From positions 139,469 through 163,468 of the forward strand of contig JAFOFB010000015.1 of assembly GCA_017387505.1 (NCBI GenBank): DNA of 24,000 nucleotides, given 5' to 3'. This document shows positions 3,729-14,596 of this stretch, in pieces (position 1 is the stretch's first letter; every line of letters starts with the position of its first letter). The position numbers were made by a program, and so were the translations under genes. The notes under the pieces are model-generated. The model was not told where the DNA came from, made no database searches, and worked only from the letters and a program-made list of their open reading frames with translations. This DNA is from Methanocorpusculum sp. (GTDB lineage Archaea > Halobacteriota > Methanomicrobia > Methanomicrobiales > Methanocorpusculaceae).

Positions 3729-4587
3729 CCGAAAACTGCTTGATACAATCCGCCCTTTAATTGGCGAGGCTGAAACAGCAGACGACTGCTCAATGTTTGA
3801 TTTAGGAGATGGGAGAATTCTTGTCTCAAGTACAGACATGCTCCACGAAACAACCGACTTTCCAAAAGGAATGACCGAGTTTGAGATGGGCTGGATGAGT
3901 GTTGCTGTCACTTTATCAGACATTGCATCAACAGGTGCTGCACCATCTCAGGTCTTGGTTGCTGTAGGTCTCGACAATCCTGAAAGGCTCTATCCGTTTA
4001 TGGAAGGGGCTGTCTACTGTGCTGAAAAGTTCGGCACCAAAGTTGCAGGCGGAGATATCGACTCTCACAAAGAACTGACTGCTGTAACAACAGCATTCGG
4101 AATCGTTGACAAATCTGTTTACTGCAGAAGAAGCGGGGCTTTTGTTGGAGATGCTGTATGTGTTACAGGAATTCCTGGAAGAGCTCAGGCGGCACTTGAT
4201 GGCCGAGAGGAGTTTAGAGAGTTCCTTCTAACTCCAACTCCGCAGGTCTCATCCGGTCAGAAAATTGCTCACGCGGGTGCTTCATCTATGATGGATGTAT
4301 CAGATGGTGTTGTTATTTCTCTCTATGATATCGCTGATGCATCGTCTGTTGGAATTGTTCTTGACGGCAAGTCATTCCCCCTCTTCGAGGAAAGCGAGTA
4401 TGCAAAGACCTGCTTCCTCTACGGGGGTGGAGATTTTGGTCTGCTTTTTACTGCATCAGATGCAGTTATTGAAAAGCTTGACATTAATTACACTGTAATT
4501 GGTCGTGTTGTAGAGGGTAATTCTGTAATTCTTGACGGAGTTGTTCTTCCAAGAAAAGGTTACGCCCATGTTTGGGGCGATGCCTAA
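3721..4587 (+). CDS. thiL: Thiamine-monophosphate kinase (AIR synthase-related / PurM-like fold)
   Basis: ATG 3721 overlaps the upstream stop by 8 nt; the ORF-track start at 3625 lies inside the DUF460 gene. Motifs DDCSMFDLGDGRILVSSTDMLHETTDFP, AGGDIDSHKELT and MMDVSDG, together with a length of 288 aa, fit ThiL better than PurM, HypE or SelD. Confidence 0.75.
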   Translation: MDDRKLLDTIRPLIGEAETADDCSMFDLGDGRILVSSTDMLHETTDFPKGMTEFEMGWMSVAVTLSDIASTGAAPSQVLVAVGLDNPERLYPFMEGAVYCAEKFGTKVAGGDIDSHKELTAVTTAFGIVDKSVYCRRSGAFVGDAVCVTGIPGRAQAALDGREEFREFLLTPTPQVSSGQKIAHAGASSMMDVSDGVVISLYDIADASSVGIVLDGKSFPLFEESEYAKTCFLYGGGDFGLLFTASDAVIEKLDINYTVIGRVVEGNSVILDGVVLPRKGYAHVWGDA

Positions 4588-10518: not shown

Positions 10519-10533
10519 GAGTAATTATTATTC

Positions 10534-10542
10534 TTTTTTTTT
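10534..10542 (+). terminator. T9 tract after tfrB
   Basis: ATTCTTTTTTTTTCT begins 13 nt after the tfrB stop. Confidence 0.5.
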
Positions 10543-10546
10543 CTAA

Positions 10547-10638
10547 GTGAATCAGTTCTTGAATAATATTATTGGAAATAATATTACCAAACAATCAAAG
10601 TTTTCACATTGCTGAAATATCCATTGGTGAATTCAGTT
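10547..10638. promoter_or_regulatory. Repeat-dense AT-rich region upstream of the integrase (promoter and/or candidate recombination site)
   Basis: GTGAATCAGTT (10547-10557) and GTGAATTCAGTT (10627-10638) bracket two copies of AATAATATTA (10562-10571 and 10577-10586, period 15). Confidence 0.25.
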
Positions 10639-10639
10639 A

Positions 10640-11572
10640 ATGAAAACCAAACACGAACCAATTACAGAATTTATTGACAACTATCAAAACGAAAAAACAA
10701 AAAACAACTACCTGACATCACTCAGCCATTTTCTCAAATTTGTTTCATACACTAACCAGACTGGAGAATATTCAGATATCAATAAATTGGCAAAACGATA
10801 CTTACAAAAAATCAGAATCGGAAAGCATGACTACAAAAAAGATCTTGGGGCATTTGCATCATGGCTCAGCAAAAAATATGCCCCGACAACAGCAAACCTC
10901 TATTTACGCAGTACAATTATGTGGCTGACAGATAATGGATACACCATAAATCGGAGAGAACTACAGCGTATCTATACACGTCTTCCAAAACCGATTCCAA
11001 TTGAAAATGGTATCGAACTAAAAAGGAAGGTATTCAGAGAACTGTACTACTACTTTCCAGAGGATGTTCAAACTCTCTTACTTGTAATGCTTGCCTCCGG
11101 GATGCGTCTTGGTGAAGCTCTCCTGCTTAACATAGATGATGTGATTTGGAATAAAGAACGCGCTGAAATACATATCAGAGCAGAAATTACCAAAACAAAA
11201 AAAGCAAGGACAGCTTACCTGACAGCCGAAGCTTGTGAATCTCTTATAGAATACCTCAATGGAAGAATGGACAGCTGTGAAAAGCTCTTTACTATATCAT
11301 ACTCCCGTGCTCAGGCTGTCATGCTGAATGCATCAGAGAATCTTGGATACTCAAAGATAATTAATGGCAGAAATCGCGGGATGCATTGGCATATGACACG
11401 AAAATGGTTCATCAGCCGCTTCACACTTGCTGCGAATAAGGATGTTGCAGAGTTCATTGCAGGACACGAAGGATATTTGTCTACTTCATATCGACGATAC
11501 ACCAGAAAACAAATTCTCAAACAATACAGAAAAGCAGAGAAAAAACTAAGTATTCTAAAAGATGGGTATTAA
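10640..11572 (+). CDS. Tyrosine recombinase / phage-type integrase
   Basis: 310 aa. Core-binding-like N-terminus, catalytic-domain motifs ASGMRLGEAL (Arg), HWHMTRKWF (HxxR), IAGHEGYLSTSYRRY (His...Tyr). The gene is AT-rich: hand counts on two 60-nt samples gave about 32% and 42% GC. Confidence 0.85.
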   Translation: MKTKHEPITEFIDNYQNEKTKNNYLTSLSHFLKFVSYTNQTGEYSDINKLAKRYLQKIRIGKHDYKKDLGAFASWLSKKYAPTTANLYLRSTIMWLTDNGYTINRRELQRIYTRLPKPIPIENGIELKRKVFRELYYYFPEDVQTLLLVMLASGMRLGEALLLNIDDVIWNKERAEIHIRAEITKTKKARTAYLTAEACESLIEYLNGRMDSCEKLFTISYSRAQAVMLNASENLGYSKIINGRNRGMHWHMTRKWFISRFTLAANKDVAEFIAGHEGYLSTSYRRYTRKQILKQYRKAEKKLSILKDGY

Positions 11573-11596
11573 ATGCCCATCATATCGAATCTCTTA

Positions 11597-12235
11597 TCAA
11601 AACCCATGCGCAATCCTTACAAACTCTCTCGTCCGCTCTAAATCCCGCACACCCTCTTTCTTCACCCATGAGTGCACATCCACAACATAGGACTTTACAA
11701 CAGACATAGCCTCAACTAAATTCTCAGGCTTCAAACCGCCTGCAAGAATAACTGGCTTTGACACTGCCTCTACAACCTTAGCAGAAATAGACCAGTCATG
11801 CGTAATGCCTGTCCCGCCTAATCTATCTTCAGTTCTGCTGTCTAAAAGAATTGCATCTGCAAACATCTCGAACTCTTTTGCAACAGAAACCGCAGACTCA
11901 TCTAAGACATGAACTGCCTTGATTATGAAAAGATACGAAAACCTCTCACGAAGAAGAGCAAGTGTTTCTACAGAAACCATATCCTGAATCTGCAAAACAC
12001 TGCATCCTGTCTCTTCCACAAGGTGAATCAAATCATCAGCATCAGTCAGATGAGTTACAACAACACCGGAAACAAAAGGCGGAAGAGAACGTATCATTTC
12101 TCTCGCCTCGGAAGTGGAAATTGAGTCCTCAGATTTGTGAGTTGTTCCGACAATAAATCCGACAGCATCAGCTCCTGCAGATACAGCTATCTCCAAATCT
12201 TCTTTGGTTTCAGTCCCGCAGATTTTACACTTCAT
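11597..12235 (-). CDS. trpF: Phosphoribosylanthranilate isomerase
   Basis: The ORF-track start is a GTG at 12265. ATG 12235 is preceded by GAGGA at about -13..-9 and gives the canonical N-terminus MKCKICGT. Motifs LLDSRTEDRLGGTGITHDWS and ILAGGLKPEN. No other trp genes are in the window. Confidence 0.8.
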   Translation of the reverse strand: MKCKICGTETKEDLEIAVSAGADAVGFIVGTTHKSEDSISTSEAREMIRSLPPFVSGVVVTHLTDADDLIHLVEETGCSVLQIQDMVSVETLALLRERFSYLFIIKAVHVLDESAVSVAKEFEMFADAILLDSRTEDRLGGTGITHDWSISAKVVEAVSKPVILAGGLKPENLVEAMSVVKSYVVDVHSWVKKEGVRDLERTREFVRIAHGF

Positions 12236-12290
12236 TAGATTGTCCTCGATGAATAGTATGGTCACTCAACTTACAAAAAATACGCGAATC

Positions 12291-12379
12291 TACGCGAATA
12301 TTAAATTTATATTTGTGAAAGTGCTGTCGCTTCGTCGCTTATCGCTCCTGCGTTGTGAACATCATGCTATCGCATGATG
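12291..12379. repeat. Left inverted arm of the GxxExxY cassette
   Basis: Outer block tACGCGAATA (12291-12300). Middle block GTGCTGTCGCTTCGTCGCTTATCGCTC (12321-12347). Inner hairpin CATCATGC-TATC-GCATGATG (12360-12379). Confidence 0.7.
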
Positions 12380-12879
12380 TCTGCTGTGTTGTTATACTCT
12401 GCTTCATTTTCTGTAAGGTTGTTTGATGAATATCCGGACTGTGATTTGAGATATTTTTTGTTGGTGAAGACATATTTCTTCCATTCAAGATAACGTGGAT
12501 TTCCAAAATTAATTACAAGCCCGACTTCACATCCTGTCGCTTTCAGATAATTAACAATCTGTGTTCTGTCGTGTCCATCAATTTCATGTTTGATTTTGAG
12601 TTCAAGAATGATTTTATCATAACAAACAACATCTGCGAAATAATTCTTCTTTAATTTCTCACCATCATAGTATATTGACAGAGGTTTCTGTGTTTGGAAG
12701 GGAATGCCACGTCTGCCAAGTTCAATTCCTAGGGCCTCTTCATATACTGCTTCCAGAAAACCATATCTAAGTGTATTGTAGACTTTGAAAGCAGCACTCA
12801 TTATCTGGTATACTTCATCTGCGAGAATAATATCATCATTCTCGGAAACGAAATAGGAAAAACATGGATTCTCAGTCAT
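12367..12879 (-). CDS. GxxExxY family protein (PD-(D/E)XK nuclease superfamily, PDDEXK_3-like)
   Basis: Contains the name motif GFLEAVYEEAL, then IPFQTQKPLSIYYDGEKL...ADVVCYDKIILELK...QIVNYLKATGCEVGLVINFG. The core is about 125 aa, with a ~25-aa N-terminal and a ~30-aa C-terminal extension. The last codons and the stop lie inside the left-arm hairpin. AT-rich (about 32% GC in one hand-counted 60-nt sample). Confidence 0.85.
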   Translation of the reverse strand: MTENPCFSYFVSENDDIILADEVYQIMSAAFKVYNTLRYGFLEAVYEEALGIELGRRGIPFQTQKPLSIYYDGEKLKKNYFADVVCYDKIILELKIKHEIDGHDRTQIVNYLKATGCEVGLVINFGNPRYLEWKKYVFTNKKYLKSQSGYSSNNLTENEAEYNNTADIMR

Positions 12880-12932
12880 TTCAGCCCACTATGATTCAAA
12901 CATACTCGTTGAAATGTGATAATACTTTGCCC

Positions 12933-12964
12933 AAAAATCAGGAAGCTGTGCGATAGCACAGCTT
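12933..12964 (-). terminator. Hairpin plus T5: possible terminator of the thiM-thiE-trm5-like operon (this is also the inner hairpin of the right cassette arm)
   Basis: On the minus strand, AAGCTGTGC-TATC-GCACAGCTT is followed by CCTGATTTTTGGG. Confidence 0.3.
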
Positions 12965-13032
12965 AACAGCTGAAGAGCGATTAGCTCTGAAGCGACAACA
13001 CCTCATTAATTCTTAATCCATCTATTCGCGTG
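12943..13032. repeat. Right inverted arm of the GxxExxY cassette
   Basis: Inner hairpin AAGCTGTGC-GATA-GCACAGCTT (12943-12964). Middle block GAGCGATTAGCTCTGAAGCGACAACAC (12975-13001) is the reverse complement of the left middle block at 22/27 positions. Outer block TATTCGCGTg (13023-13032) matches at 9/10. Confidence 0.7.
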
Positions 13033-13043
13033 TTCTTAATCAA

Positions 13044-13970
13044 TCAGCACCCGATTTCAATATCGTAAACTGCATGCCAGCTTGTTGGAGAATACGAGCG
13101 TATGAACTTCTCTGTAATCTTTGCATCAGGGAAGGCACGGAGGATATCCTCATTGTGTTCACCTTCACGTTCTACAAGTGAATAGAGATGAATCGTACAG
13201 CGTTCTTCCGCAAGTTTTGCTGCTGCCTCTAAGAATTCATATGCAGCGAATGGCAGATTCATAATGATGCGGTCGAATTTGAGTGGAGAAAGCATATTTG
13301 GCAGATTCATCGCATCTCCAACGGTTGCGGCGACTGTTTTTATTTTGTTTAAGCGGAGGTTTCTCTGCATCAGATAAACTGCGGACGGATTTAAATCATT
13401 TGCAACCATCAGTGAGGCCTTAGGTCCAAGCATCACAGCAAATGGTCCAACACCCGCAAACATATCGAGAACCTTCTCGCCTTCACGCATCTGGGACAGA
13501 AGGCGCTGTCTTTCGTTTGACAGACGTGCTGAGAAGTATGCAGCAGTCAGGTCGACAATCATACGTTTGCCGTACTCATGGTACATCGTCTCTGTTGTAT
13601 CCTGACCTGCAAGAACCTTGAATGTGCGGGTTCTAAACTCACCTTCGACAGGCGATGTTGCATAGAGCGCTGTGTGAACATTTGGTCTGTGCTGCAGAAT
13701 CTTCTTTGCACCTTCAACATCCTCGTCCTGCAGGATAACAAGACCTCCAACCTGCTCATGACGCGGAAGTTCCTCTCTCTTCGGGCTTGCCGCAAAAGGC
13801 ATCTGCACAGCACCCTCACGCTTTTCGCAGATTGGAATCAGTAAAAACCCGTCCTCCGCACGCGGACGAAGTGTCCTGTCTGCTGTTCCGTCTGATATCA
13901 TCTGCCGGCGCATTGCTTCCCCTTCCTGAATCGGGACGCGAATGCACCACTGTATTACCTCTTCACTCAT
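13044..13970 (-). CDS. Trm5/Taw2-family (Met-10+ like, COG2520) SAM-dependent tRNA modification transferase
   Basis: Class I SAM-binding motif VLDMFAGVGPFA, then NDLNP and the catalytic-loop-like IIMNLP. 308 aa. Its ATG overlaps the thiE stop (ATGA on the minus strand). I cannot separate Trm5 from Taw2 by eye. Confidence 0.7.
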   Translation of the reverse strand: MSEEVIQWCIRVPIQEGEAMRRQMISDGTADRTLRPRAEDGFLLIPICEKREGAVQMPFAASPKREELPRHEQVGGLVILQDEDVEGAKKILQHRPNVHTALYATSPVEGEFRTRTFKVLAGQDTTETMYHEYGKRMIVDLTAAYFSARLSNERQRLLSQMREGEKVLDMFAGVGPFAVMLGPKASLMVANDLNPSAVYLMQRNLRLNKIKTVAATVGDAMNLPNMLSPLKFDRIIMNLPFAAYEFLEAAAKLAEERCTIHLYSLVEREGEHNEDILRAFPDAKITEKFIRSYSPTSWHAVYDIEIGC

Positions 13971-14596
13971 ACGCTTCTTTTAGCCTCCGCAATTATAGCA
14001 GATAATTCTGCCGCAGAAGCGGATATATTTTCCTGAGAAACTACAGCAGAAATTACTGCAATGCCGTCAATGCCTGCTTTGATAACTTCTGCAATATTTT
14101 CTTTGTTCAGTCCGCCGATTCCAACAACAGGAACAGACACTGCTTCGCAGATTGCGCGTGCTGTATCTAATCCGTGACCAACTCCTGCATCGCTTTTGGA
14201 TGGTGTGGAAAACACCGGACTTACTGCAACATAATCTGCTCCGTCTCTAACTGCTTTCTCCGCTTCTTCGACAGAACCAACAGAAACTCCAATCAGGAAA
14301 TCCTTAGGCACAAGTTTTCGAACAACATCAGCAGGCAAATCGCTTTGACCTACATGCACTCCGTCTGCCTCTGCGGCAAGCGCAATGTCAAGGCGGTCAT
14401 TTACGAAAAAGAGAGCCTTGCCTTTGCAGATTTCTGCAATCTCTAATGCTGCAGCATACAATGATGCAGACTCCATGGTTTTATCGCGGAGCTGAATAAC
14501 ATCAGCTCCGCCGGCAACAGCTTCGCGAGCGATTTCTGCGTGTGTTTTTCCGCGTGAAAGTCCTTCGTCTGTTACTACATACAAATCGTACTTCAT
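13967..14596 (-). CDS. thiE: Thiamine-phosphate synthase
   Basis: 209 aa. LYVVTD, GADVIQLRDK, GVHVGQSDLP, IGVSV, ADYVAVSPVFSTPSK, VVGIGGL are typical ThiE motifs. Confidence 0.9.
   Translation of the reverse strand: MKYDLYVVTDEGLSRGKTHAEIAREAVAGGADVIQLRDKTMESASLYAAALEIAEICKGKALFFVNDRLDIALAAEADGVHVGQSDLPADVVRKLVPKDFLIGVSVGSVEEAEKAVRDGADYVAVSPVFSTPSKSDAGVGHGLDTARAICEAVSVPVVGIGGLNKENIAEVIKAGIDGIAVISAVVSQENISASAAELSAIIAEAKRSV

Follow-up and report, generated by a model that had tools for sequence, protein, structure and literature searches.

In REPIN-RAYT systems, built on repetitive extragenic palindromic (REP) sequences and a REP-associated tyrosine transposase (RAYT), one small gene of nuclease or transposase type lies between inverted, hairpin-capable repeats, gene-less doublets of the repeats occur elsewhere, and the whole is mostly chromosomal, long resident and rare on plasmids (PMC3116915, PMC3337134, PMC5581495). 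Insertion sequences (IS) and miniature inverted-repeat transposable elements (MITEs) are stretches of DNA delimited by terminal inverted repeats, with insertion polymorphism, copies in different flanks and gene-less derivatives. Integron cassettes are small, promoter-poor or single-gene units with an imperfect palindromic hairpin site, and the 23S rRNA intervening sequences (IVS) that bear an open reading frame (ORF), known from Leptospira and Coxiella, hold a small ORF of a multicopy family inside inverted repeats capable of forming a long stem. Among PD-(D/E)XK enzymes, Tn7 TnsA and the homing endonucleases of this fold operate in mobile DNA. Here, a 24,000-nucleotide stretch of Methanocorpusculum sp. 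DNA (contig JAFOFB010000015.1; hereafter the window, to which all window coordinates refer) was analysed for a cassette between trm5b and trpF, in which a gene of the GxxExxY family is enclosed by two inverted arms of ~90–110 bp each. We consider it rather probable that this small (~0.8 kb) GxxExxY cassette is a DNA-level mobile element whose nuclease recognises its own array ends.

Each of these systems resembles the cassette in part. The REPIN-RAYT plan is matched in gene content, gene-less copies and residence, but the enzyme here is Cas4/RecB-like PD-(D/E)XK with no Y1_Tnp or HUH match, the ends are not REP hairpins but tandem arrays of a 6–7 bp motif at a 9–10 bp period, members are known from both domains with several copies in many a genome, and mobilisation in trans is putative. 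The hallmarks of IS and MITEs listed above were all found, whereas no DDE, HUH, serine or tyrosine transposase and no clear target-site duplication goes with the cassette, its ends are made of multiple short repeats, and plasmids and phages carry almost no members of the family. Unlike the 23S IVS, the cassette lies between protein-coding genes, encodes another protein family and gave no sign of selection at the RNA level. It resembles an integron cassette in size, in holding a single gene, in its imperfect palindromic sites able to form hairpins and in having a tyrosine recombinase gene nearby, but two arms flank the gene in place of a single downstream attC, the array motif has no attC counterpart, and the neighbouring recombinase scores 20 bits against an integron-integrase cut-off of 265 and is unlinked to the cassette in relatives (L003). 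With Cas4 and RecB nucleases it shares the catalytic fold and motifs, but the GxxExxY protein is far smaller (~125-aa core), no Fe-S cysteines were noted in it, and its gene is a solitary one that has no cas or tns partner but has flanking arrays of its own. In a 2012 survey of the PD-(D/E)XK superfamily, the function of PDDEXK_3 was given as unknown (PMC3424549). Nothing on the GxxExxY cassette architecture was found in the full-text literature, the coverage of which was incomplete, and a prior description is possible.

Insertion between trm5b and trpF

The cassette and its neighbours are all read on the minus strand (Table 1). Three Methanocorpusculum contigs carrying the same gene pair without a cassette (L095, L096 and L097; TrpF identity to the window 83%, 78% and 71%) served as empty sites, and in all three trm5 and trpF abut or overlap (junctions TGAGTTTG, GAATGAAG and TTTTGAAG). 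Judged by these relatives, the ~808 bp that separate the stop codon of trm5b from the start codon of trpF are therefore an insertion between two translationally coupled genes. The original prediction, made from the window alone, had expected a spacer of about 66 bp after removal of the cassette, which the empty sites contradict; its proposal to compare the trm5-trpF spacer among relatives revealed the filled/empty polymorphism. Same-site orthologous cassettes are present in L006/L007 and L003/L004, with GxxExxY proteins 96% and 90% identical to that of the window. The interior of the cassette has a GC content of 0.33–0.39, compared with 0.41–0.53 in the flanks, in agreement with the AT-richness noted before.

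In filled sites trpF starts with ATG, and in two of the three empty sites with a TTG overlapping the trm5 stop codon. A TATA-like stretch lies in the part of the insertion next to trpF (12236–12280; corresponding L006 stretch, 4412–4461) and may now drive trpF, and a new trpF expression signal seems to have come along with the insertion.

Divergence was compared between the window and L006, giving 10–15 differences per 100 bp in host genes (0.32–0.40 at four-fold sites) versus 0–6 per 100 bp in the cassette (13006 to ~12420), with 0/90 in the 5′ arm. The cassette thus has a history different from that of its flanks, through either exchange after divergence of the hosts or constraint at nearly every site. 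L014 was considered as a 69%-identical same-site variant and rejected, being identical to the window from codon ~80 onward. The identity spans the gene from codon ~80, the 3′ arm, trpF and the integrase gene described below. In the region examined (L014, 1–745), the first ~330 bp are unrelated to the window and end in a bacterial-type terminator hairpin; either the cassette is truncated there or the metagenome assembly is chimeric.

Terminal arrays across phyla

Two sets of 80 GxxExxY loci each were taken from among the matches listed, one set from species-representative genomes and the other from metagenomes, both mostly bacterial and from many phyla; the matches listed are distant relatives, not close Methanocorpusculum copies. 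Among 61 GxxExxY loci, 74% had a flank-to-flank inverted-repeat score of 28 or more; among 89 neighbouring control ORFs, none had (Mann-Whitney p = 1e-21 for the scores). Arms comparable to those of the window, which the original prediction had suggested looking for at other GxxExxY loci, were found in both archaea and bacteria. In 147 further GxxExxY loci from many phyla, the motif C[A/G]CG[A/G]A was enriched 6–14 fold, reaching 10–12 per kb where strand and flank are those expected, compared with a background of 0.75–1.8 per kb, with spacing sharply peaked at 9–10 bp, and both density and spacing were alike in the two independent locus sets. Upstream of the gene, two to eight tandem copies read in the sense direction (ATCCACGAAGGACACGAAGAAACACGAAG is one example and CGCGAATGAA, eight times over, another), and the reverse-complement array lies downstream. 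The outermost copy is distinctive, (A/T)NCC[A/G]CGAA, and the termini are uniform across 51 cassettes, as in ATCCACGAA...TTCGTGGAT, AACCGCGAA...TTCGCGGTT and AGCCACAGAT...ATCTGTGGCT. The outer block CGCGAAT had been recognised in the window from the start and treated there as minor; occurring twice, it is the family-wide signature, marking the ends of GxxExxY cassettes universally. In L107 (212–283), a bacterial cassette is immediately preceded by a tRNA gene, the sole Rfam match in 60 loci.

At the 3′ end of the window cassette, the array (TACGCGAATCTACGCGAAT) is the only one of its kind in the 24 kb. The left arm (the 3′ arm in the sense of the gene) is real, but its outer limit had been set too short, a second TACGCGAAT copy lying beyond it at 12281–12289. 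At the 5′ end, the second motif copy was lost by a 13-bp deletion, as seen in the alignment with L006 and L003, which lack the deletion.

Boundaries of the unit were read from pairs of similar cassettes in unrelated flanks. L053 and L073 are 94% identical over 506 bp, from ~13 bp outside the left array to ~50 bp past the right array, and L137 and L144 are 90% identical, with homology stopping at the arrays. Because homology stops at or near the arrays in both pairs, these alignments place the ends of the mobile unit at the arrays.

Arms and hairpins at the DNA or RNA level

The three co-linear blocks and both inner hairpins claimed for the arms were all found in place. Local alignment of the left arm with the reverse complement of the right arm gave a score of 58, compared with a mean of 19.3 (sd 3.4, maximum 37) in 2000 dinucleotide shuffles, the blocks being co-linear with a single 1-nt indel between the arms. 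In L005, a GxxExxY gene 68% identical to that of the window lies between unrelated genes and has homologous arms in a better state of preservation, with termini GACGCGAAT...ATTCGCGTC, a perfectly complementary core of 30 bp (GTCGCTTCGTCGCTCATCGCTCCTTCGCTG), and hairpins GACGTGC-TATC-GCACGTC and ACGATGC-GAGA-GCATCGT. In the more distant paralogues L008, L015 and L016, at other sites, the arms are 126–138 bp long with unrelated middle sequence and follow the plan of the window, with repeats resembling CGCGAAT on the outside, then a structured middle part and, innermost, a hairpin. In the window, L008, L015 and L016, each arm also contains motif-like copies opposite in orientation to the outer array, resembling an array-spacer-inverted-array unit; subfamily A has AGCGA four times at a 7–8 bp period, and L008 has TTCGCGG/ATTCGCC.

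Across eight arms, 7/8 stem pairs of the inner hairpins change on both sides, with no G:U cell and with 90.6% of cells paired, compared with 67% in shuffles, so the compensation first noted between the two hairpins of the window is stronger than could be seen there. Compensatory differences were also found in L016 (CATGC/GCATG versus CGTGC/GCACG, and CCGGC/GCCGG versus CCCGC/GCGGG) and in L015 (TCTCG/CGAGA versus TTCCG/CGGAA), where they keep hairpins inside an arm at the cost of pairs between the arms. The hairpin of the Methanocorpusculum module is strictly Watson-Crick with a conserved centre, and the two hairpins of a cassette are two-fold symmetric, TGC-TATC-GCA being read outward from each end; because this symmetry is at the DNA level, the RNA loops of the two hairpins would differ (UAUC and GAUA).

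These data bear on an RNA-level element, in which the arms would pair in a read-through transcript around the ORF and be processed or control translation, the hairpins acting as RNA stability or termination signals; the original prediction had offered such a read-through, IVS-like helix as its second reading. The arms can co-fold (helices of 16, 3 and 9 bp, separated by a 3x3 internal loop and then a 1x1 mismatch; −90 kcal/mol), all three genes are on the same strand, and in bacteria the 5′ array can extend into the ribosome-binding site and start codon. Arm-to-arm mismatches in eight Methanocorpusculum cassettes, however, comprised 44 G:U, 37 A:C and 66 transversions, with no strand bias, and the hairpin stems are free of G:U. 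The change from AGAGC/GCTCT in the window to AGGGC/GCCCT in L003 keeps the hairpin within the arm and breaks the inter-arm pair. When the two arrays of each of 30 non-redundant cassettes were compared, identity was 96.8% in motif columns and 72.3% in spacer columns (Fisher p = 7e-21); since the motif is kept far better than the spacers, selection acts on the motif rather than on arm-arm pairing, as expected of a protein site recurring once per helical turn and not of a uniform RNA helix. A bulge-helix-bulge (BHB) structure, as in archaeal introns and processing stems (a 4-bp helix with a 3-nt bulge at either end, one in each strand), was tried, and no fitting register was present in the co-fold. 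Rfam gave no match at E ≤ 1 in window positions 12000–13300, and 0/60 scanned GxxExxY loci lie in an rRNA gene.

Between the 5′ hairpin and the ATG, a box AAAG(T/C)ATTATC is conserved across four cassettes, and it would be the archaeal promoter (transcription factor B recognition element and TATA box, BRE/TATA) of the GxxExxY gene. If so, the 5′ arm is outside the gene's own mRNA, because the box lies on the inner side of that arm. The lack of G:U bias, the compensation within arms, the conservation focused on the motif, and the absence of BHB, Rfam and rRNA context together favour action at the DNA level, and an RNA-level element is accordingly very improbable. The module of TCGCT repeats and hairpin would be a DNA structure, either a cruciform or formed in single strands.

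The GxxExxY nuclease

The family assignment made from the sequence was confirmed by PF13366 (123.8 bits, cut-off 22; E 6e-36) and TIGR04256 (131.1 bits, cut-off 35; E 2e-38), the family motif reading G40-F-L-E43-A-V-Y46 in the window protein. At E ≤ 1e-3 the family comprises 10,585 representatives at 50% identity. Alignment of 60 homologues showed V33, G40, F41, E43, V45, E53, Y71, D83, K95, G120, N124, F125, G126 and L131 to be invariant, and E93, Q107 and Y111 nearly so; aligned in this way, E...D...ExK together with QxxxY (Q107xxxY111) is the signature of RecB/Cas4-type nucleases, with the active site intact. An AlphaFold model (mean confidence, pLDDT, 82; residues 147–170 disordered) was searched with Foldseek, and the best PDB matches, all weak (template-modelling score, TM, ~0.3–0.46), were Cas4 SSO0001 (4ic1), lambda exonuclease (3slp) and RecE (3h4r). 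By motifs and fold, the protein is a Cas4/RecB-like PD-(D/E)XK nuclease and belongs to that superfamily, which is defined by an alpha-beta-beta-beta-alpha-beta core with the catalytic motifs D...(D/E)xK and QxxxY. A sequence search of the protein returned no relatives in the PDB, and PADLOC defence models and PHROGs gave no match to it.

The C-terminal ~30 residues (140–170; 12367–12460) are predicted to be disordered, are poorly conserved and run into the 3′ hairpin, with the stop codon TAG in the hairpin loop, in line with the earlier observation that the ORF ends inside the left hairpin; the ORF probably simply reads into the arm up to this codon. Proteins P0012, P0245, P0247, P0257 and others, of 250–390 aa, contain two query-matching stretches, as tandem fusions of the GxxExxY domain.

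Motif class and protein class were found to go together. The same 6-mer was present at the locus of the nearest protein neighbour in 33/47 cases versus 15 expected. Proteins of the CGCGAA class, bacterial and archaeal, mostly carry a C-terminal xxT(N/K) extension, the window protein (...EWKKYVFTN) included, and those of the CACGAA class are without it. This match fits recognition of the arrays by the encoded protein, and shared descent could give the same pattern. Mutual information between residues and motif was suggestive, but is confounded by phylogeny.

Gene-less copies

Arm copies without a gene were found in L006, L015, L180 and L182. L006 contains, just downstream of trpF, a unit in the order hairpin-core-array, then 33 bp, then array-core-hairpin, and L015 contains a similar pair 1.1 kb from its own cassette; homology between the two pairs ends at the hairpins GCAACAC-GATA-GTGTTGC. 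Comparison of L006 with L003 and L095 gave no boundary for the gene-less unit, the intergenic region being too diverged. L180 carries an 84%-identical cassette at the trm5-trpF site and, 16 bp after its 3′ terminus and before trpF, a second, gene-less element (1040–1370) with a 5′ arm hairpin CAACAC-TATT-GTGTTG, ~60 bp and a single ATTCGCG terminus, which suggests that elements accumulate beside each other's ends. Back-to-back doublets were also considered as an 'inside-out' element, which was dropped, L180 showing that in some of them, at least, two neighbouring elements meet. In the bacterial L182 (1520–1680), two ~60-bp ORF-less units of convergent arrays follow the gene, reading AACCACGAAT three times ... 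ATTAGTGGT three times, and in the bacterial L045 (~1930–2110) back-to-back arrays are repeated as gene-less tandem mini-units; both are REP- or MITE-like.

Such copies would also be expected of a non-autonomous passenger, with MITE-like arms mobilised in trans, for example by the tyrosine recombinase encoded at 10640–11572, and with GxxExxY as cargo. The recombinase gene lies ~0.7 kb off, and tyrosine and HUH enzymes typically act on sites that contain hairpins. That recombinase, however, is missing beside the L003 cassette and yet present at the empty site L096, the array motif is tied to GxxExxY genes in many phyla with no common partner gene seen, and motif class tracks protein class, and we regard the passenger explanation as having little chance of being correct.

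Boundaries, residence and spread

That the cassette is mobile or was formerly so, the first reading of the original prediction, agrees with its presence/absence polymorphism at trm5-trpF, with the copy at a second locus in L005, and with the comparable arms at other loci, all findings whose absence would have told against that reading. Several results weigh against an element moved by its own nuclease. The best flanking direct repeat averaged 2.18 nt versus 1.69±0.17 in permutations, and no consistent target-site duplication was found. No recognised transposase (DDE, HUH, Ser or Tyr) is encoded in the cassette, the only ORF being that of the PD-(D/E)XK protein. Many of the metagenomic loci show synteny from end to end between strains 81–99% identical, indicating that the cassettes have long been inherited vertically in place. 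Plasmids have almost no members of the family (6/72,556 records), phages have none (0/50,697 records) and IMG/VR has only 2 GxxExxY loci, a scarcity atypical of an actively transposing element; the arm-core pattern likewise had no match in viral contigs. About 45 bp at the 3′ side of the insertion lie outside the inverted repeat, and the association of protein with motif can come from co-inheritance alone. On these counts, GxxExxY cassettes are mainly long-term chromosomal residents and not fast-spreading insertion sequences.

Long residence at the same locus across related strains, the near absence from plasmids, phages and viral contigs, and the absence of a clear target-site duplication are also what a resident, domesticated module would show, as is the position of 5′ arrays, which often abut or overlap the start codon as operators do. 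Such a module would serve the host in repair, defence or DNA structuring, its arrays being operators or landing sites (autoregulation, looping), and would spread solely through ordinary horizontal transfer and recombination, with no part played by the nuclease itself. It accords poorly with insertion exactly between two overlapping genes, with near-identical cassettes in unrelated flanks whose homology ends at the arrays or at most ~50 bp from them, and with the existence of arrays and arms that lack the gene. The outermost copy of the repeat stands apart, as in transposon termini, the cassette is less diverged than the host flanks, and PADLOC defence models gave no match. We hold domestication to be unlikely, and prefer the mobile element with a self-recognising nuclease.

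Features of the locus

Coordinates of the features are collected in Table 1. Right downstream of trpF and convergent with it, an AT-rich island (10519–11596; GC 0.26–0.40) contains the tyrosine recombinase/integrase gene (10640–11572, plus strand; Phage_integrase E 1e-12, PHROG integrase E 6e-22). At this position, orthologous loci have a gene for a PGF-CTERM protein (L003, L095) or an integrase gene (L096), and the integrase gene of the window probably represents an integrated element in its own right, with no link to the cassette.

Table 1. Features of the trm5b-trpF locus, in window coordinates and in transcription order
Feature	Position	Strand	Basis or remark
thiE	13967-14596	-	first gene in transcription order
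trm5b-like methyltransferase	13044-13970	-	second gene in transcription order
Whole inserted segment	12236-13043	-	between trm5b stop codon (13044) and trpF start codon (12235); absent from empty sites
5′ terminal motif CGCGAAT (sense)	13024-13030	-	single copy in window; two copies 10 bp apart in relatives
5′ arm core block, diverged copy of GTCGCTTCGTCGCTYATCGCTCC (four TCGCT repeats)	12963-13001	-	inverted repeat and arm alignment
Intra-arm hairpin AGAGC-TAATC-GCTCT	12974-12988	-	inside 5′ arm core block
5′ arm inner hairpin AAGCTGTGC-TATC-GCACAGCTT (sense)	12943-12964	-	sequence, fold, covariation
Conserved box AAAGTATTATCACA, ~46 nt upstream of ATG	12915-12928	-	kept in L180, L005, L008
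GxxExxY ORF, 170 aa	12367-12879	-	third gene, between trm5b and trpF
3′ arm inner hairpin CATCATGC-GATA-GCATGATG (sense)	12360-12379	-	stop codon in loop
3′ arm core block GGAGCGATAAGCGACGAAGCGAC (sense)	12321-12359	-	one R position off cores of L005 arms
3′ terminal array, two ATTCGCG (sense) 10 bp apart	12281-12299	-	direct repeat; TACGCGAAT twice on plus strand
A-rich terminal extension and ~35 bp up to trpF ATG	12236-12280	-	missing from empty sites
trpF	ATG at 12235, end 11597	-	last gene in transcription order

Proposed mechanism and implications

In the mechanism that we propose, the minimal cassette would be a nuclease gene between inverted arrays of the nuclease's own recognition motif. 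The nuclease would bind the arrays on duplex DNA and act at the outermost copies, so that gene and ends would propagate as a unit and gene-less array pairs could also be copied or moved. The nearest parallel, a loose one, is a RAYT with its REPINs, or else a transposase with its terminal repeats. Binding of the arrays and catalysis of mobility by the protein are both inferred steps, as is action of the hairpins on DNA. The Methanocorpusculum lineage would have added to each arm a symmetric module, a TCGCT-repeat core and a hairpin, between the array and the gene. More tentatively, and with the odds somewhat against it, GxxExxY cassettes as a whole may be an unrecognised class of pan-prokaryotic minimal selfish or persistent elements, with a ~125-aa nuclease as sole enzyme; it would recognise inverted arrays of the 6–7 bp motif at helical spacing and would move or maintain its gene and the gene-less array doublets by a mechanism unlike those of DDE, HUH, serine and tyrosine enzymes.

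For annotation, the arrays mark element boundaries, and they account for spurious small ORFs and for disrupted operons such as trm5-trpF. A very large family with almost no literature gains testable biology, in the form of array-bracketed genes, joint movement of gene and ends, and gene-less remnants. Should the nuclease act on its own arrays, it would be a new class of enzyme among the few DNA-mobilising proteins and a very small module for sequence-specific DNA recognition, and the short dispersed CACGAA/CGCGAAT repeats in many genomes would be explained.

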